Sequence record: MW862804
Source: Escherichia phage UAE_MI-01
Strand: one strand, 5' to 3'
DNA length: 44,281 nucleotides
Both the position numbers and the translations under genes were made by a program. Positions 16,984 to 26,073 of this stretch are shown piece by piece; within the stretch, counting starts at the first letter, position 1; each line of letters opens with the position of its first letter. The notes under the pieces were generated by a model. It worked only from the letters and a program-made list of their open reading frames with translations, did not search any database and had not been told where the DNA came from.

Positions 16984-19242
16984 TTTTAAATCGTCATCGG
17001 TCGCTGAAAGCGTGATAGGGATATCCGATTTGATGACCAAATTAGACGACCCATAGATGGCCCCGGTGTGCGGATCGGTATAGAAACCTATCACTCCGCG
17101 CTCCACCATATCGTCGATTGCCTTCGTCGAAGTGCCACCTTTTGCGAGTCCCGCCTGGCGGACGATTGCCGATTTACTGAATCCGGTATGGTCCGGGTTA
17201 TCTTCCATCAGTTTTTCCAGTGCCGCATAAAGCACTTTCTCTTTTTCATTGCGCGGTCCGGCGGTGTTCTCTTCCTTAACTGCGGCCTTGCCTGCTGCCT
17301 TCGCCTGTTCGATGGCGAACGGTGCCAGGGCAACCGGTACAAGATACAGCGTCTCATCGCGCGGGGTGGATGCAATCGGCTTGACGTCCCAACCGGCAAC
17401 CACATCTCCGAAGTCTGGCCCGGTGCTGGTGGACTGGTGTGCCTCGAACGCTTCTGACTTGCGGAGATCCACCTTAACTTTGCACTTGAGCAGGACGAAG
17501 CCGCGCGGCGCTTGCTTGATGCCGTTACGTGACTTTTCGTGATACAGGTTCAATTGTCCGGGCTGGTTGTCGTCCGGCTGTTCCAGGAAGAAAGCGGAAT
17601 CGACAGCACCATGCAGCGCGCCGGACCCGCGTGGGGTTCTGCTGCCGTTTGCACCTTTCGCCGGGTGGTGAATGACGCCCGCACTGCCACCTGTGTTTTC
17701 CGCGATGGCCTTCAGAGCTTTGACCACTTCGCCCATATCGCTGGCGTTGTTCTCGTCGAACGGTTTAGCATCGGCGGACCGCAACGCAACCGTCTGGTTG
17801 AGTGAGTCGAACGCCACCAGGCCAACCGGCTCGCCGTTAGCGGTGCGGTTGATAAAGCTGATAACTTCACGCAAGCCAGATTTGCTGGTGATATCCCAGC
17901 CGCGGGATTGCAGATCGATAATGTGCAGCTTGTCCAGGTCGTGCTCGTATTTAATCTGCAATGCTTCTTTACGCTGGTTGGAGGCTTCACCACCTTCCGC
18001 GTCGAAATAGAAGCAATGAGACTGGACGACCTTCGCACCGCCGAACGGGATCCCTGCGGCAACCGCGCCCATTTGGCCCAGCACATAGAAAGACTTACCG
18101 ATATTCGACTCACCCGCCATGTACCAGGTCGATTTAAAGTTAATCAACCCCTCGATAATCGGGTCGTGCTTACTGAACAGCGCGACCGGCTCGTTATCCA
18201 GATCCGCATCGGTGCACACGCCGTATTCTTCGCCGTCGCCAACCGCATCAACAATATGTTCGTATAAGGATTCGACTTCCTCGTCGTCCAGCCCCGGAAG
18301 GATGGCGGCGATTTGCTTGCGCGACATGTTGTGTGGCTCGACGTTCAGGTGGTCCGGGATCCCGATAAGACGCAGCGCCAGGTGCTGGTGTCTGTTCAGT
18401 TCCGAGCAACACTCGTTGCCGGTGTGCATACACTTGAAACGGATCTCGCCATCCTTGACCATAATGGCGGTGGACCCTTCGCCGCTGTGCAGATGTTCGT
18501 TCGGGCACGGCACTTCATAACCGCGACCGGAAGATAACTCCTCGAATCCTGCCTGGAAGCACCAGTCCAGAATGCCGTCTGCCACTGCGTCGTCGCCCTG
18601 GGTCAGTTCGCGGCGGACTTCCTCTTTCTCAACTCCCAGCTTGTCCGCCAGGCGGAGCAGACGACGGACGCGGGCGCGCTTGCCATAGTGGCATTTAATA
18701 ACAGACTGCTGGTGTGGCAGGTACATCAGGCGGTTTGTGTCTTTCGTGCAGTCGTCGAAGTCCACATCTGACAGGCCCAGTTGGTGTAATAGCGCATACT
18801 GGACACGGCCCAGGTCTTCAGCCGGTACAGGCTTGTCAGTGAGTACCAGGAATCGAGCGCAACGCGTGCCGCCTTTCAGTGGGTGACGGTCGCCGGTTGT
18901 GGTGTGGAAGACGTGCTCCAGCCCCGCGTCAGTGAACGCCTTACGGCAACGGCGTAAAGTGCGGGTGTCGGTGCGGTCAATATCGAAGAACAGGATCGAG
19001 CGGTCCACCGCACTGGTCTTACGACGCAATCCGTCACTGGTATACGCCACGATGCCGTCGGCCTTACGCTTGCGGCGCGCATACTCGGCTTTATCTTCTG
19101 TCTTGTTGATATGCACCGAGGAGATTTCTTTCGCATCTTTGATAAATTCGAAAAATTCATCGGTGGTCATCTGGAAGTTTTCCGCCCTGGCTTTTTCGCC
19201 TTTTTTAGCGGGTCTTGTTACAGCGAATTTAATTAAGCTCAT
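16978..19242 (-). CDS. Bifunctional primase-polymerase / P-loop (RecA/DnaB-like) replicative NTPase
   Basis: 754 aa; N-terminal FFDIDR-type primase-polymerase motif, Cys/His zinc-binding cluster, Walker A GESNIGKS in C-terminal half. Confidence 0.7.
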   Translation of the reverse strand: MSLIKFAVTRPAKKGEKARAENFQMTTDEFFEFIKDAKEISSVHINKTEDKAEYARRKRKADGIVAYTSDGLRRKTSAVDRSILFFDIDRTDTRTLRRCRKAFTDAGLEHVFHTTTGDRHPLKGGTRCARFLVLTDKPVPAEDLGRVQYALLHQLGLSDVDFDDCTKDTNRLMYLPHQQSVIKCHYGKRARVRRLLRLADKLGVEKEEVRRELTQGDDAVADGILDWCFQAGFEELSSGRGYEVPCPNEHLHSGEGSTAIMVKDGEIRFKCMHTGNECCSELNRHQHLALRLIGIPDHLNVEPHNMSRKQIAAILPGLDDEEVESLYEHIVDAVGDGEEYGVCTDADLDNEPVALFSKHDPIIEGLINFKSTWYMAGESNIGKSFYVLGQMGAVAAGIPFGGAKVVQSHCFYFDAEGGEASNQRKEALQIKYEHDLDKLHIIDLQSRGWDITSKSGLREVISFINRTANGEPVGLVAFDSLNQTVALRSADAKPFDENNASDMGEVVKALKAIAENTGGSAGVIHHPAKGANGSRTPRGSGALHGAVDSAFFLEQPDDNQPGQLNLYHEKSRNGIKQAPRGFVLLKCKVKVDLRKSEAFEAHQSTSTGPDFGDVVAGWDVKPIASTPRDETLYLVPVALAPFAIEQAKAAGKAAVKEENTAGPRNEKEKVLYAALEKLMEDNPDHTGFSKSAIVRQAGLAKGGTSTKAIDDMVERGVIGFYTDPHTGAIYGSSNLVIKSDIPITLSATDDDLKD

Positions 19243-19984: not shown

Positions 19985-20527
19985 ATGTTTGAACAAATCG
20001 TAAACCTGATCACTCGCGGCGTAGTAGCACTGGAAATCATCGCTAAACATTATGAAACCGTTGGCGCTGCCGTAGACCCAAAAGCAAACGGCACTGCTAA
20101 GAAAGGCAAGGCCAAGCCAGATACTGAAGTCGAAGACGACGACGATCAGGACGAAGTCGAAGATACGCCTAAAACGAAAAAAGGCGCGGCAAAAGAAACC
20201 AAGTCTAAAGGTAAGGCCAAAAAAGAAGTCGTAGAAGATGACGACGACGATGACGCCGATGACGTGAAGCCAGCGAAGGGTAAAAAAGCTCCGGCGAAAG
20301 GCAAAGGCAAGAAAGATGCCGATCCGCTGGCAGAGATGCGCGACGAGATCAAACAGTATGCCGCTATTATCGCTGGTGGTGACGACGACGATGCCAACGA
20401 CGAATTCGACGACCTGCTGGAAGCGTTCGAGATCAAATCAATCGCCAAGCTGGAAGATGACGACGTCGAAGACTTCCACAAAGACCTGAAAGAAATCGTC
20501 GAAACCTATTTCGAATTGGAAGATTAA
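19985..20527 (+). CDS. Highly charged early protein with alternating Lys-rich and Asp/Glu-rich blocks
   Basis: ATG 19985 with GGAGAT RBS; first gene of the plus-strand operon; followed by terminator. Confidence 0.55.
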   Translation: MFEQIVNLITRGVVALEIIAKHYETVGAAVDPKANGTAKKGKAKPDTEVEDDDDQDEVEDTPKTKKGAAKETKSKGKAKKEVVEDDDDDDADDVKPAKGKKAPAKGKGKKDADPLAEMRDEIKQYAAIIAGGDDDDANDEFDDLLEAFEIKSIAKLEDDDVEDFHKDLKEIVETYFELED

Positions 20528-20826: not shown

Positions 20827-21015
20827 ATGGCTATATTCTTTGTTTTATTTCGTTGCCGTATTACCGGCGATGAGCAACCGGAAATCGTTATGAATCAGAA
20901 CTGGAATTGCTGCTGGATGCAAGCCCGAGGACTGGCGGCTACCATGAACGAAGCCGCGAAGCGGGCTGGGGTTAAACATGAATATTACATTGCTCAGTTT
21001 TCAAGGGTGGAATAA
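20827..21015 (+). CDS. Small hypothetical protein
   Basis: ATG directly after upstream stop; 62 aa. Confidence 0.35.
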   Translation: MAIFFVLFRCRITGDEQPEIVMNQNWNCCWMQARGLAATMNEAAKRAGVKHEYYIAQFSRVE

Positions 21016-22445
21016 TGGCGATTAAACCAAAACGTAAAACGCAATCCGGTAGCAATACGGAACACTCATTACTTGGTCCATCCGGTGCTAAAAAATGGAT
21101 GGGTTGCCCTGCCGCCCTGGTGGTGGAAAAAGATATCCCGAACGAATCCGGGCAAGCCGCGATTAACGGTACGAGTATGCACACCGTATCGGAGGTGGTG
21201 CTAAACCGCATTATCGCCGGTGAGAAGCTGATAACCGCGAAGACGTATAAAGGGTGCTACGTCGAGAACGAAGGCAAGGGGCCAGTAAAGGCACACCCGA
21301 AAGCACCGAAAGGCGGCGTACTGGTCAATGACGACATGGTGAAACAGTGCGACGCGTACATCGACCACTGGCGACCGCTCCTCGAAGTGGCGGAGTTTGT
21401 CCAGCTTGAGATGCGCGCCGATCTGACCCGCGTCCTTCACTCAGGCTACGAGATCGACGGCAACCGGATTAAAACGTTCGGTACTGCCGATATGGTCATG
21501 GTCATGAAAAAGACCGACGGTACGTACATGCTGATTGTTGGCGACCTGAAGACCGGGCGGCATAAGGTCGAGGCAAAAGAAAACAAACAGCTTATGTTGT
21601 ACGCGCTCGGCCTGCTGCGCAAGCTGCAAACCATGTACGACATTACGACCGTTCGCCTGGTTATCTTCCAGCCGTATTGCGGCGGGGCGTCGGAGTGGGA
21701 TATTTCGGTAGAAGCGCTGGAGATATTCGCGAAGTTTGCATCCAAGCGCGCTATTGCCGCACTGGAGGCGTATTCCCGAGGCAAGAAGGGGCTTACACGT
21801 GCCGACTTCCGTCCCAGCGTTGATGCGTGCCAGTGGTGCAGATTTGCGGATCAGTGTAGCGCCAGGGCGAAGGCCGCAATCGATACGATGACACCCCCAA
21901 CGGCAACCGACGAAGACCTGGGCGACGACGTGAGTATTGCGACTGCGGAAGAATGCGCCAACCATGACCGCAATATGACCCGCGAAGCCCGGAAGGCGGC
22001 ACGACGTGCGAAGCGTGGTAAGAAAGAAGCGGCCCCCGGGGCTATGAGCGCGGAGGAACTGCGCAAGGCTTATGAAGGCCTGGACGCAATGCGCCAGCAC
22101 ATCAAAGCTATCGAGTCCGCGGTATTCAAAGCGGTAATGGCGGGTGATGGCGAATCGCTGGGCCTCAAGATGGTCGCCGGTAAGGAAGGGATCCGTAAGT
22201 GGGCGGACGAGAGCGAAGTGATTGAAATCTTCACGAAGGCCCGGATCAAGCGCGATGTGATGTACAAAGAAACATTGCTCAGCCCTACGGATGCCGAGAA
22301 GGTACTGAAGGACGAAAAACCGAAAGTGTGGGCTAAGCTGTGTGATAAAATCACACGCGCGCCAGCTAAACCGGTGTTAGCACCGATCGACGACCCGCGC
22401 CCTGCGTGGTCGGAAGCTACTGACGAGGACTTAAGCAATGAATAA
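21015..22445 (+). CDS. PD-(D/E)xK exonuclease (Cas4/RecB-like, DUF2800-type)
   Basis: D...VGDLKTG motif, C-terminal Cys cluster CQWCRFADQC; position in PolA replication module. Confidence 0.55.
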   Translation: MAIKPKRKTQSGSNTEHSLLGPSGAKKWMGCPAALVVEKDIPNESGQAAINGTSMHTVSEVVLNRIIAGEKLITAKTYKGCYVENEGKGPVKAHPKAPKGGVLVNDDMVKQCDAYIDHWRPLLEVAEFVQLEMRADLTRVLHSGYEIDGNRIKTFGTADMVMVMKKTDGTYMLIVGDLKTGRHKVEAKENKQLMLYALGLLRKLQTMYDITTVRLVIFQPYCGGASEWDISVEALEIFAKFASKRAIAALEAYSRGKKGLTRADFRPSVDACQWCRFADQCSARAKAAIDTMTPPTATDEDLGDDVSIATAEECANHDRNMTREARKAARRAKRGKKEAAPGAMSAEELRKAYEGLDAMRQHIKAIESAVFKAVMAGDGESLGLKMVAGKEGIRKWADESEVIEIFTKARIKRDVMYKETLLSPTDAEKVLKDEKPKVWAKLCDKITRAPAKPVLAPIDDPRPAWSEATDEDLSNE

Positions 22446-22680: not shown

Positions 22681-22770
22681 CCGCTTAGGCGCAACCAAGT
22701 AGATTAGCAACCAAGCCGAACGGGGTGGCTTCCAATAACCCCGATACATGTGAAAATGAGGAATTGGAAA

Positions 22771-23556
22771 ATGGCTAAAGTCAACCTGAAAAATGTGCGC
22801 GTATGTTTCCTGAAAATTTGGGAACGTGATACCCCTAAACAGGACGGACAAAAACCGGCATACCGCGCCGTGATTCTTCTTGATAAAGAAGATCCGCAGG
22901 TGGACAAAGTGGAAGCGGCAGCGCGCGCAGTGCTCACCGACAAGCTGAAATCCGAGAAGAATGCCGATAAGTGGATGGACCGCCACTACGCCCAGGATTC
23001 TAAGGAATGTGCAGTTCGCGACGGCGACGAGCGCGATGAAGTAACCGAAGAATTCGAAGGAATGTTGTACATCAACGCTAAATCGTTCAAACAGCCAAAC
23101 ATCCAAACGTCACTCGGCGAGAAGCAGACCGAACAGGGTCTGACCGTAGAAGGCGACGAAATCGAAGGCCAGGAGATCTACTCCGGTTGTTATTGCAATG
23201 TGTCACTGGATATTTGGGCGTGGAACAACACCAACGGCAAGGGACTCGGTGCTGGACTGCTGGGTTTACGCTTCCGTGATGACGGTGAAGCCTTCGGCGG
23301 TGGCGGATCTTCGTGCTCCGATGAAGACCTGGACAACGACGACGAAGATGAAAGCCCGCGCAAGTCCAAAAAGTCAAAACGTCGTGATGACGATGACGAA
23401 GACGACAAGCCGCGCAAGTCCAAAAAGTCCAAGCGCCGCGATGACGACGATGATGACGAAGACGAGAAACCTCGTAAACGTCGTAAGCCACGCGATGACG
23501 AAGATGATGAGGACGACGACGAAGACGAAGCACCACGCAAACGTCGCCGCCGTTAA
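22771..23556 (+). CDS. ssDNA-binding protein-like (DUF2815-type, putative) with C-terminal basic/acidic repeats
   Basis: ATG 22771 with GAGGAA RBS; synteny between DUF2800-like nuclease and PolA; C-terminus built from 54-63-nt tandem DNA repeats. Confidence 0.4.
   Translation: MAKVNLKNVRVCFLKIWERDTPKQDGQKPAYRAVILLDKEDPQVDKVEAAARAVLTDKLKSEKNADKWMDRHYAQDSKECAVRDGDERDEVTEEFEGMLYINAKSFKQPNIQTSLGEKQTEQGLTVEGDEIEGQEIYSGCYCNVSLDIWAWNNTNGKGLGAGLLGLRFRDDGEAFGGGGSSCSDEDLDNDDEDESPRKSKKSKRRDDDDEDDKPRKSKKSKRRDDDDDDEDEKPRKRRKPRDDEDDEDDDEDEAPRKRRRR
23356..23556 (+). repeat. Imperfect tandem coding repeats (54, 60 and 63 nt) encoding PRKSKKSKRRDDDD(E/D)n units
   Basis: Direct reading. Confidence 0.8.
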
Positions 23557-23574
23557 GGGCAAAGCCCACTATTC

Positions 23575-23597
23575 AAGCCCGCTTAGTGCGGGCTTTT
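23575..23597 (+). terminator. Rho-independent terminator
   Basis: AAGCCCGC-ttagt-GCGGGCTT followed by TTTT. Confidence 0.65.
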
Positions 23598-23614
23598 TAA
23601 TAGGACAATGGAAA

Positions 23615-23785
23615 ATGCGCATTAAAGCCAGCGAAGTAAAAGTCGGAATGCAGGTATGGTCTAAATTGCTGGGCGAGTATTTCACCGTTGCCGAGGTTCG
23701 CAACAACGGCGAGGAGATAACCCTTTCCGACGGTATCTTCTCCATGATCGGCAGCGCCGACGCCGTAGTGAGGATTAAGCAATGA
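23615..23785 (+). CDS. Small hypothetical protein translationally coupled to DNA polymerase
   Basis: ATG 23615 with AGGA RBS; stop overlaps polymerase start (ATGA). Confidence 0.45.
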   Translation: MRIKASEVKVGMQVWSKLLGEYFTVAEVRNNGEEITLSDGIFSMIGSADAVVRIKQ

Positions 23786-26073
23786 AAGACTTTGAACGCC
23801 TGTTTCTCGATACAGAGACATTTAGCGGGGTGGATCTGAAGAAAGCGGGAGCATACGCCTACGCGGAACACCCAACTACTGAGATTATGATTTGCACATA
23901 CGCCATCGACGAGGGCCGCGTGCAGACCTGGGATTGCACCGAATCCCCCACAATGCCGCGTGAACTGCGCAAGGCGCTCCGCCAGGTATCCCGCAAGAAA
24001 GCAAAAATCGTGATGGCTAACGGCCTCCTGTTTGACCGCCTGGTTATTCGCGAGAAGTGGGGCATTGACCTGCCGGTAGGCCAGATCGAAGATACCATGA
24101 TTATGGCCTTTCGCCACGCGCTGCCGGGTAGCCTCGATATGCAATGCCAGGTGCTGGGCGTTGACGCAGAGCACGCGAAGGATAAGGCGGGCAAGGCGCT
24201 GATCAAACGATTCTGTAAGCCAACCCCTAAGACCTACAAAATCCGCCGCTACACGCGCGAGACGCACCCCGAGGAGTGGGCTAAATTCCTGCGCTATGCC
24301 GCGCTTGACATTATAGCGATGAGGGAAGTCTACTGGCGCATACCGGACTGGGGTAACACGCCGAAGGAAGATGAAATCCTGCTTATTGACCAGTTGATCA
24401 ACGACCGCGGCTTCTATGTGGACGTTGACCTGGCGAACGCCGCGATCAAAGCGGTGCAGGCGCATAAGGAAGAATTGAAGGAAGAAGCATGGGAGCGCTT
24501 CGGCGGTAAGCTGACTGGCAATGACTTCCTGCCAGCGCTGCGCGACCTCGCGCCTGCGTTCACAATACACAACGCGCAGAAATCCACGCTTAACGACCTG
24601 CTGGAAGACCCGGACTTCCCCGACGAGGGCAAAGTGCTTATCGAGATGCGCCTCGGTGCATCATCAACGGCATCGACTAAGTACAATCCGCTCGTTAATG
24701 GCTTATCTGCAGATGGTCGCCGTCGTGGGTGTCTCCAGTATGGTGGGGCGAAACGCACGCTACGCTGGGCGGGCAAAGGCTTCCAGCCGCAAAACCTGGC
24801 GCGCGGCGAGTATAGCGACGACCACGAAGGGAAGATTAAGCGCCGTGATGGCGAGAGCGACGTTTCTTTTTGGGTCCGGTCGCACATGCTCACCAACGGC
24901 ATCAACTCCCTGTTACGCGGGACAGCGCACTGGGCGTATGACATATCGAAGTTAACGGCCTCGACCGTTCGCGGGTGCATTATCCCGGCTAAGGGCAAGA
25001 AGTTTGTTGTAGCTGACTATTCTAACGTGGAAGGTCGCGGGCTTGCCTGGATCGCTGGTGAGAAAACCGCGCTAATGGTGTTTAGGGCGGGTCGCGATAT
25101 CTATTGTGAAACTGCCGGTAAGATGTTTGGCCTCGACCCGGAATACATCAAAGCCAACCGAAAAGACTTGCGCCAGATTGGTAAGGCGTGCGAATTGGGG
25201 TTGGGCTATGGTGGCGGCGTTGCAGCGTTCCTGCAGTTTGCTAAAAACCTGGGCCTCGACCTTTACACGATGGCGGACGTCATGAAAGGCACATTCCCCG
25301 ATCACATTTGGGCAGCGGCGAAGCGGGGTTATGAATACGCCCGCATTAACGAAGCGAAGCGCCCGCCGAAGCCTGGCAAGAAGGACGAGCGCCCAACTTA
25401 CATACTGCCGAAAAACGTGTGGTTGACGTGTGACGCGATCAAACGTATGTGGCGTGAGGCCCACCCGAAGACGGTAGCCTTTTGGGCAGAGCTTGAGGAC
25501 GCGGTGTTGTGCGCAATCCGCAATCCGGGCAAAGCATACTGGGCTGGCGCTAACGTTCGCCCGGATGGTAAGAAAGCGCTCAAGATAGTGCGCACGAAGG
25601 CGAAGCATGACCCAACCTTCGACGAGGAGCGCGACGACCCGAACGCGGCGGGGTGGTGGCTTAAAATTGAGTTGCCTTCAGGGCGCATCATGAGCTATCC
25701 CGGCATCGCGCTGTCTGTCACGACCGAGATAGACGAGGACACCGGCAAGAAGCGCACCAGTACCCGCATCAAATACCAGGGCGAGAATCAGACGACGCGC
25801 CAGTGGGGCTTCCAGTATACCTACGGCGGCAAACTGACGGAAAACATCGTACAGGCGCTGTGTCGCGATATCCTCGCGTGGTCCATGCCGGGGGTTGAAG
25901 CCGCGGGCTATGAGATCGTACTGTCAGTGCACGATGAATTGATAACCGAAGTGCCGGATACTGACGACTACACGACCGAGGAGCTATGCGCGCTGATGTG
26001 CGACCTGCCTGTTTGGGCGAAAGGCTTCCCGCTTGCCGCTGAAGGCGACATTATGTACAGGTATAGAAAATAA
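23782..26073 (+). CDS. DNA polymerase, family A, with 3'-5' exonuclease domain
   Basis: Exo I motif LFLDTETFS; polymerase motifs DYSNVEGR (A), RQIGKACELGLGYGGG (B), SVHDE (C). Confidence 0.9.
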   Translation: MKDFERLFLDTETFSGVDLKKAGAYAYAEHPTTEIMICTYAIDEGRVQTWDCTESPTMPRELRKALRQVSRKKAKIVMANGLLFDRLVIREKWGIDLPVGQIEDTMIMAFRHALPGSLDMQCQVLGVDAEHAKDKAGKALIKRFCKPTPKTYKIRRYTRETHPEEWAKFLRYAALDIIAMREVYWRIPDWGNTPKEDEILLIDQLINDRGFYVDVDLANAAIKAVQAHKEELKEEAWERFGGKLTGNDFLPALRDLAPAFTIHNAQKSTLNDLLEDPDFPDEGKVLIEMRLGASSTASTKYNPLVNGLSADGRRRGCLQYGGAKRTLRWAGKGFQPQNLARGEYSDDHEGKIKRRDGESDVSFWVRSHMLTNGINSLLRGTAHWAYDISKLTASTVRGCIIPAKGKKFVVADYSNVEGRGLAWIAGEKTALMVFRAGRDIYCETAGKMFGLDPEYIKANRKDLRQIGKACELGLGYGGGVAAFLQFAKNLGLDLYTMADVMKGTFPDHIWAAAKRGYEYARINEAKRPPKPGKKDERPTYILPKNVWLTCDAIKRMWREAHPKTVAFWAELEDAVLCAIRNPGKAYWAGANVRPDGKKALKIVRTKAKHDPTFDEERDDPNAAGWWLKIELPSGRIMSYPGIALSVTTEIDEDTGKKRTSTRIKYQGENQTTRQWGFQYTYGGKLTENIVQALCRDILAWSMPGVEAAGYEIVLSVHDELITEVPDTDDYTTEELCALMCDLPVWAKGFPLAAEGDIMYRYRK

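Follow-up and report, generated by a model that had tools for sequence, protein, structure and literature searches.

The SSBs of bacteria and phages, proteins that bind single-stranded DNA (ssDNA), end, in the textbook picture, in an acidic tip that recruits partner proteins. Escherichia phage UAE_MI-01 (sequence record MW862804; 44,281 nucleotides (nt), analysed at full length as the window, which is approximately the whole genome of a Dhillonvirus, an HK578-like E. coli siphophage) encodes an SSB in which the last 201 nt of the gene, positions 23356-23556, hold tandem repeats that add alternating basic and acidic blocks to the protein and finish in a run of basic residues. How did such a tail arise, and what may it do on a replication protein? 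We find that it is a real and previously undescribed variant of the SSB C-terminal tail within a known family; a search of open-access papers and preprints found no description of alternating-charge SSB tails. As to its role, we consider it probable, rather than settled, that the repeats are a linker-like polyampholyte extension that evolves by slippage behind the real docking motif.

The SSB and its repeat-built tail

An earlier note on this DNA had called the encoded protein SSB-like, and an SSB it is. The protein matches PF10991 (formerly DUF2815) over residues 3-193 (E=1.3e-31; 110.1 bits against a cut-off of 26) and PHROG 112, 'Gp2.5-like ssDNA binding and annealing protein' (E=9e-51), and sequence matches in the PDB to the Enc34-type SSB structures 4klk, 4jg2 and 5odj have E values of 1e-10 to 3e-12. 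The AlphaFold2 model resembles the Enc34 SSB and T7 gp2.5 as well: Foldseek paired it with 4klk (E 1e-12) and with the Enc34 SSB structures 5odl/5odj (E 2e-12 and 5e-11), at template modelling scores of 0.72-0.75 (per target length), and with T7 gp2.5 (1je5) at E=1e-6. Conservation in the family alignment extends to the aromatic residues W68, Y137, F168 and F175. A query with the SSB gene returned 153 phage records that are 80-97% identical, nearly all from Escherichia or Shigella Dhillonviruses. The gene is laid out as follows (OB, oligonucleotide/oligosaccharide-binding; pLDDT, predicted local distance difference test).

22771..23556, + strand: SSB gene of the Enc34 / T7 gp2.5 type, 261 amino acids (aa) plus stop
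22771..23295, + strand: OB-fold core, residues 1-175, AlphaFold2 pLDDT 95-98
23296..23355, + strand: Gly linker GGGGSS and proximal acidic motif CSDEDLDNDDEDES, within the Pfam match
23356..23409, + strand: cassette U1, 54 nt, PRKSKKSKRRDDDDEDDK, that is PRKSKKSKRR followed by DDDDEDDK, charge about +1
23410..23469, + strand: cassette U2, 60 nt, PRKSKKSKRRDDDDDDEDEK, that is PRKSKKSKRR followed by DDDDDDEDEK, charge about -1
23470..23532, + strand: cassette U3, 63 nt, PRKRRKPRDDEDDEDDDEDEA, that is PRKRRKPR followed by DDEDDEDDDEDEA, charge about -6
23533..23553, + strand: basic C-terminal tip PRKRRRR, charge +6
23554..23556, + strand: stop codon

The three imperfect repeats of 54, 60 and 63 nt and the closing PRKRRRR, which the earlier note had placed at 23356-23556, are exact in coordinates and lengths, and its statement that tandem DNA repeats build the tail holds at the DNA level. 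A period-54 array of 2.3 copies (83% matches) is placed at 23336-23460 by Tandem Repeats Finder, and no array in the window scores higher than its 178. U1 and U2 are identical at 48 of 54 aligned bases, including an exact run of 20 nt, a length that was reached by one of 2000 codon shuffles of the tail, and all four differences between their basic blocks are synonymous. U3 is an older, diverged copy with 62-66% DNA identity.

The tail, residues 176-261 (86 aa), thus runs from the Gly linker through the acidic DEDL motif and three basic-acidic cassettes to the basic tip. It is predicted to be disordered, with a pLDDT of about 50 and no secondary structure in the AlphaFold2 model. With 28 K/R and 37 D/E, its charged fraction is 0.76 and its net charge -9, and the charges are strongly segregated (kappa about 0.62, against 0.13 +/- 0.05 for 2000 shuffles with a maximum of 0.35), so that predicted disorder, charge content and charge segregation together mark it as a block polyampholyte. 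The tail is a variant of the acidic unstructured tail that defines the family: it is predicted to be unstructured and is net negative with a proximal acidic motif, yet it holds 28 basic residues and a strongly basic C-terminus. An acidic-hydrophobic motif of the bacterial SSB type was not found at the extreme C-terminus, which reads PRKRRRR.

Variation in cassette number and alternating tails in the wider family

The earlier note had proposed that repeat number be compared among isolates, and we compared the tails of 23 genes, namely that of the window, 18 from GenBank Dhillonviruses and four from IMG/VR contigs. A scan of IMG/VR for relatives was swamped by low-complexity peptide patterns and returned 8 loci; GenBank records were used instead. 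All 23 SSBs have the linker, the DEDL motif and PRKRRRR, and the number of cassettes between them is 0, 1, 2 or 3, as in a variable-number tandem repeat.

0 cassettes: welsh (202 aa; ends ...DEDLDNDDEDEAPRKRRRR)
1 cassette: EP23 (224 aa)
2 cassettes: Henu5_1, Psq-1, EK99P-1, CHD5UKE2, Sloth, TheodorHerzl, SECphi4, JL1, LM40P1
3 cassettes: window, SECphi18, rolling, Gluttony, SO-1, CHD2B1, Kente (265 aa, longer acidic run)

Which cassette is missing differs between phages, and the metagenomic clusters P0003, P0004 and IMGVR_d add further tail architectures. Relative to the window, exactly the 54 nt of U1 are missing from Henu5_1, where a direct repeat of 20 nt marks both breakpoints; from welsh exactly 177 nt (54+60+63) are missing, and the direct repeat at the breakpoints measures 13 nt; and the 111-nt deletion of EP23 is flanked by a direct repeat of 6 nt. 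U3 is missing in TheodorHerzl, SECphi4 and JL1 through in-frame deletions of 57-63 nt, and at the 57- and 63-nt deletions the breakpoint repeats measure only 2-3 nt. Because whole units come and go in frame with direct repeats at the breakpoints, the array evolves through slippage or through unequal recombination among the direct repeats that it contains. Three cassettes are the common state. In a census of 60 of the 153 GenBank records, evenly spaced and including some RefSeq/GenBank duplicates, about 47 (~78%) had three cassettes, 11 had two (two of these calls being inferred from alignment extent), one had one and one had none. The cassettes are dispensable for plaque formation, since welsh forms plaques with no cassette.

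The length differences of the 22 other sequences relative to the window are all multiples of 3, and this bears on the idea that the array is a phase-variable contingency locus, or that the interval serves another strand or another frame. The idea would draw on long stop-free frames on both strands and on two clusters that read the tail in the +1 frame, P0005 (GenBank phage vB_EcoS-22664B1, 269 aa) and P0009 (261 aa), with …AMTKMKHRARLRSPNVV… and the ending …KGKAHYSSPL.AGFL.GQ. Either the repeat was misread in sequencing or these two are natural frameshift variants in which the whole charged tail is replaced. With every unit length and every one of these indels a multiple of 3, and with P0005 and P0009 being single-member clusters that may be sequencing errors, frameshift phase variation is largely refuted: two singleton frameshifted database sequences are all that was found for it, and we regard this explanation as extremely improbable. 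Coding by the other frames or the minus strand (open reading frames (ORFs) 23190-23540, 23087-23569 and 23198-23785) was considered and, on codon composition, rejected; these are stop-free by-products of runs of GAY, GAR and CGN codons, with products that are Ser-rich on the minus strand and Thr/Met-rich in the +1 frame. In the last of them, 23198-23785 (+), no stop interrupts the +1 frame on the way from the end of the SSB core, across the tail, the SSB stop codon, the terminator and the intergenic region, into a gene for a 56-aa protein (23615-23785), which lies in that same +1 frame relative to the SSB. The open frame is probably coincidental, because in other phages a stop intervenes (…GQ*).

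Beyond the Dhillonviruses, a search with the full-length SSB, which is biased by the tail itself, returned homologs with alternating tails down to about 27% core identity, in which a block rich in P and R/K followed by a D/E run is repeated from once to more than eight times. A search with the core only (residues 1-184) against 1.84 billion representatives gave 2210 matches, and we typed the tails of the best 150. About 124 of these 150 have plain acidic tails without a basic block, and such plain tails of the family end in hydrophobic or aromatic residues (DDDIEF, DDLPW, DDLA and the like); genuine alternating tails are carried by about 16 (about 10%). The distribution of alternating tails over a neighbour-joining tree of 262 cores is strongly clustered, with 9 parsimony changes against about 88 with shuffled labels, and these tails form at least two groups. 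Members of the group around the Dhillonviruses mostly have the basic tip (…PRRRRR), and the second group retains an acidic-hydrophobic tip (…RDDDVA, …DDDDVV, …DDDDI). Distant members with alternating tails share the module, in which the SSB is accompanied by a DUF2800 exonuclease, a polymerase and an SNF2 helicase, and they have tandem DNA arrays of their own, with periods of 42 and 84 nt in locus L029, 57 nt in L030 and 42 nt in L027. Since these arrays differ in period, the tail expansions are lineage-specific and ongoing, and the alternating tail is a recurrent minority variant of the family tail.

A distant SSB in locus L007 (1057-1695; 43% identical over matched residues 134-194) has zero cassettes and passes from its acidic motif directly to a basic tip (…KDFDEGEEKPKKKKNK), the same minimal layout as in welsh. 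This layout may be the seed state from which cassettes get duplicated.

The earlier note had named as its own counter-evidence the absence of the repeat from functional orthologs without a phenotype. In part, as far as absence goes, this is what we see, in plaque-forming welsh and in some 83-90% of the closest family representatives.

The replication module, a probable docking motif and the proposed role of the cassettes

The SSB gene is flanked by a DUF2800 / PD-(D/E)XK exonuclease gene upstream (21015-22445) and a family-A polymerase gene downstream (23782-26073), with an 80-aa ORF between exonuclease and SSB and the 56-aa ORF between SSB and polymerase. In the vicinity are genes for an AAA_25 primase/helicase-like protein and for an SNF2 helicase, and the gene order of this replication module is the same in relatives. 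The SSB gene has signals on both sides:

22758..22762, + strand: Shine-Dalgarno-like GAGGA, 8 nt 5' of the SSB start, read from the sequence
23575..23598, + strand: terminator-like hairpin AAGCCCGC-UUAGU-GCGGGCUU followed by a U-run, 3' of the SSB stop

The position of GAGGA speaks for the ATG at 22771 as the start, in preference to two alternatives (GTG at 22750, ATG at 22756), and the PF10991 match starts at residue 3 counted from this ATG. A simple consensus terminator scan did not list the hairpin at 23575-23598, which folding confirmed (-24.6 kcal/mol, z=-4.8; none of 200 shuffles folds equally well). The 56-aa ORF (+ strand; PHROG 10102) is kept in all Dhillonvirus loci. The polymerase gene of the window is the short form: those of Sodalis phage SO-1 (noted at L016 1397-1571) and Shigella phage EP23 (noted at L020 1401-1636) span about 3.19 kb against 2.29 kb, and for SO-1 the record places a group I self-splicing intron within this gene.

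The DEDL region ahead of the repeats is kept in every Dhillonvirus variant, including welsh, and matches the family consensus A.DDDLDDDD. Its core, [ST]D[DE]DL, occurs in three proteins of the window:

23317-23331, + strand: S-D-E-D-L of the SSB, upstream of the repeat interval; candidate docking peptide CSDEDLDNDDEDE
22419..22433, + strand: TDEDL near the exonuclease C-terminus (ends ...SEATDEDLSNE)
21906-21920: second TDEDL copy of the exonuclease (TATDEDLGDD)
16987..17001, - strand: TDDDL near the C-terminus of the AAA_25 primase/helicase-like protein (ends ...LSATDDDLKD)

These four occurrences in the window proteome compare with 0.056 expected, and none of 2000 within-protein shuffles reached four. 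Moreover, the motif co-varies between proteins. Over 12 loci, the exonuclease C-terminus matched the proximal tail of its own SSB with a mean best 7-mer score of 23.6, against 17.1 for the SSBs of other phages, and the total for the true pairing was reached by none of 20,000 permutations. Four loci illustrate the pairing:

L030: SSB proximal tail ATDDDLE; exonuclease C-terminus ATDEDLE*
L029: SSB proximal tail DDDFNDDDDD; exonuclease C-terminus DEFNEEDDDE*
L006: SSB proximal tail QDFEAID; exonuclease C-terminus NDFEALD*
L007: SSB proximal tail KDFDEG; exonuclease C-terminus RDFSDG

In two further Leu-type lineages the helicase ends in the motif too (AASDEDLE*, DCDLSDSD*), and in other lineages D[DE]F replaces [ST]D[DE]DL; the loci that bear on the motif in either form are L005-L007 and L027-L037. 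The Leu-type lineages are interrelated, and independent co-switches are therefore few, perhaps two or three. By analogy with T7, [ST]D[DE]DL has the look of a docking motif that replisome proteins have in common, and the canonical docking element of the SSB is most likely the DEDL motif ahead of the repeats. With the docking element upstream, the repeats occupy the position of a spacer or extension. The earlier note had suggested that repeat number could tune interactions with replication partners; this may be so, but the likeliest point of contact with partners is the DEDL motif and not the repeats.

Our favoured model, each functional step of which we infer, is as follows. Tandem duplication of a cassette of about 54-63 nt, comprising one basic and one acidic block, has built an extension of the tail that is predicted to be disordered, and the cassettes, placed between the SDEDL... 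docking motif and the PRKRRRR tip, would act as an adjustable, linker-like electrostatic spacer, corresponding to the disordered linker in bacterial SSB. The acidic blocks could extend a canonical function for which gp2.5 and Enc34 are known, namely to compete with DNA and to bind partners, and the basic blocks and the tip could bind weakly to nucleic acid, or to acidic stretches in the molecule itself or in its neighbours. The net effect would be to modulate cooperativity, the discrimination between ssDNA and double-stranded DNA (dsDNA), and access to the DEDL motif, which may itself recruit the exonuclease and the helicase or compete with them at a shared site. Across the cassette-number variants the net charge of the tail ranges from -3 to -13; as U1 and U2 are near neutral and the acidity of U3 is offset by the tip, a change in cassette number alters length and valency and leaves the net charge negative.

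Alternatively, the cassettes could be a neutral low-complexity expansion, that is, tolerated products of slippage behind a tail in which only DEDL, and perhaps the basic tip, is functional. Viable isolates do have anything from 0 to 3 cassettes, welsh having lost three in one 177-nt event, about 124 of the best 150 core matches lack a basic block, and in the alignment the acidic runs differ by single codons as well. Such an expansion would not, however, account readily for the predominance of three units in the sampled isolates (~78%), for the independent expansion of the architecture in distant lineages with different periods, or for the pattern of substitution. The ratio of nonsynonymous to synonymous polymorphism (pN/pS) among the 23 Dhillonvirus genes, a measure made imprecise by alignments of low complexity with many indels, comes to 0.065 for the core and 0.136 for the tail, and it ranges from 0.01 to 0.37, well below 1, in individual cassette blocks; the synonymous differences between the basic blocks of U1 and U2 point the same way. 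On this rough, alignment-based estimate the cassettes appear to be under purifying selection where they are present, and free drift of the tail peptide is disfavoured because pN/pS is low while the cassettes are present. We therefore regard neutral expansion as unlikely, though by no means negligible. The PRKRRRR tip is identical in all 23 SSBs, with no nonsynonymous change. Its codons (23533-23553) also have a low pS, 0.09 against 0.30-0.87 in other tail segments and 0.30 in the core, for which the small number of codons, Arg codon preference, or a constraint on the mRNA beside the stop codon and the terminator may be responsible.

Besides the imprecision of pN/pS, several points weigh against a role for the cassettes as a functional spacer. 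Duplication of a unit with one basic and one acidic block gives alternation automatically, and the pattern alone is therefore no proof of selection. Given that welsh forms plaques without a cassette and that most family members have none, any function must be modulatory and could be slight. The sole functional study of a Dhillonvirus SSB, on the SECphi4 protein as the Retron-Eco8 trigger, omitted the 'flexible C-terminal residues'. Assembly collapse could account for some of the short variants, but this is improbable on the whole, given that independent isolates and metagenomes show at least eight distinct architectures.

A second charged protein is encoded upstream of the exonuclease, and it brings in another explanation for the alternating tail. 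Its gene and the counterparts in related modules are:

19985-20527, + strand: 180-aa protein, PHROG 3127
L029 3629-4093, L032 2-475, L033 1193-1684: counterparts
L034 634-1224, L036 5137-5607, L037 3365-3814: counterparts

In this protein, blocks rich in K alternate with acidic ones between a conserved helix at the N-terminus and an acidic domain at the C-terminus. Charged-block counterparts lie upstream of the exonuclease in most related modules, and the block region is variable and often tandem-repeated itself, for example as KKAPAKKAPA. The earlier note had held that the composition of the SSB tail mirrors that of the early acidic protein. This is right for the alternation of K-rich and acidic blocks; a kinship in DNA or peptide beyond low complexity was not found. 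Gene conversion or a shared origin was rejected, the longest exact DNA matches between the two being acidic-codon runs of 8-19 nt; DNA and peptide matches are no better within than between phages, and the use of K versus R differs.

The SSB tail and this 180-aa protein could together form a condensate or hub scaffold, self-associating through multivalent electrostatic contacts and so concentrating SSB and replisome on phage ssDNA. The very high charge fraction and segregation of the tail, its predicted disorder and the presence of a small alternating-charge protein upstream of the exonuclease in most related modules are consistent with such a scaffold, as are the findings that alternating charge blocks drive phase separation elsewhere (PMC9106583) and that E. 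coli SSB condenses through its tail (bioRxiv 10.1101/797431). The argument is, however, purely analogical: the valency would depend on the oligomeric state of this SSB, variants with no or one cassette are viable, and the two charged proteins have no specific sequence relation. We think a scaffold quite unlikely as the explanation of the tail. A broader proposal, that the replication module of Dhillonviruses and their relatives is electrostatically organised by a scaffold and a shared docking site jointly, is one that we hold only tentatively and consider doubtful as a whole. In its scaffold part, the SSB tail and the upstream charge-block protein may condense the replisome on ssDNA, with a valency set by the fast-evolving cassette number. 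In its docking part, SSB, exonuclease and primase-helicase may compete for one site through the co-evolving [ST]D[DE]DL (DxF elsewhere), in a manner that may resemble the T7 hand-off but with an internal motif and an SSB C-terminus that is basic, not acidic.

Comparison with known systems and significance

The Enc34 ORF6 SSB (from an Enterobacter/Hafnia phage; 5odj/5odl) and T7 gp2.5 share the OB-fold variant found here, and the Enc34 protein belongs to the same Pfam family, PF10991, and has the same place in a module of DUF2800 exonuclease, SSB and family-A polymerase. The tails of the Enc34 and T7 proteins are short (~21-29 residues) and purely acidic, with an aromatic residue at the end of T7 gp2.5. 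Unlike these, the SSB of the window has an 86-residue, repeat-built tail in which four basic blocks alternate with acidic ones up to the PRKRRRR end. In the Enc34 SSB the unstructured C-terminal segment starts with an acidic stretch, and its deletion leads to dsDNA binding (PMC5686142). The structure paper on Enc34 calls the tail 'acidic' (PMC5686142), and the SECphi4 work describes it as no more than 'flexible'.

E. coli SSB is built on the same modular plan, with a core that binds DNA, a disordered spacer that varies and a short motif for docking. Its linker is rich in Gly, Gln and Pro and nearly uncharged, and its docking motif stands at the extreme C-terminus. The protein described here differs in that its OB-fold is of another family, the spacer comes after the docking-type motif, and about 80% of the spacer residues are charged. 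In E. coli SSB, cooperativity and condensation are tuned by how long the linker is and by what it is made of (bioRxiv 10.1101/2022.01.17.476650, 10.1101/797431; PMC12143593). Disordered regions of alternating, highly segregated charge blocks are likewise found in Ki-67 and in the C-terminal domain of Caulobacter RNase E, which forms BR-bodies (PMC9106583, PMC12510024); these proteins are unrelated and far longer, and condensation is known for them, the SSB tail being likened to them by sequence pattern only.

In T7, as summarised in PMC13402713, the acidic C-tails of gp2.5 and of the gp4 helicase-primase dock on a shared surface of the gp5 polymerase. The module described here is similar in that several replication proteins of one phage share a short acidic-hydrophobic motif (once in the SSB, twice in the exonuclease and once in the AAA_25 helicase-like protein). 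It is unlike T7 in that the motif reads [ST]D[DE]DL, where T7 has an acidic run with a C-terminal Phe, that it is internal in the SSB, and that the partner is only putative.

A well-populated branch of the Enc34/gp2.5 SSBs thus has a repeat-built extension of alternating charge behind its acidic motif, and in the Dhillonviruses this extension ends in an invariant poly-arginine tip. Natural isolates with 0-3 cassettes are held in collections, among them the BASEL phages (TheodorHerzl, KarlBarth), the SECphi phages and welsh, and the effects of linker length and charge blocks on the SSB's cooperativity, dsDNA discrimination, condensation and recruitment of partners are therefore directly testable in E. 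coli K-12. The SSBs of SECphi4 and SECphi18 are the trigger of Retron-Eco8, and tail variants could therefore matter for immune sensing; the main text of the SECphi4 SSB work gives no positions for the Retron-Eco8 escape mutations, and its figure leaves the flexible C-terminus out. Lastly, the shared, co-varying DEDL/DxF motif offers a handle on how the very common but little-studied module of DUF2800 exonuclease, PF10991 SSB and family-A polymerase holds together.

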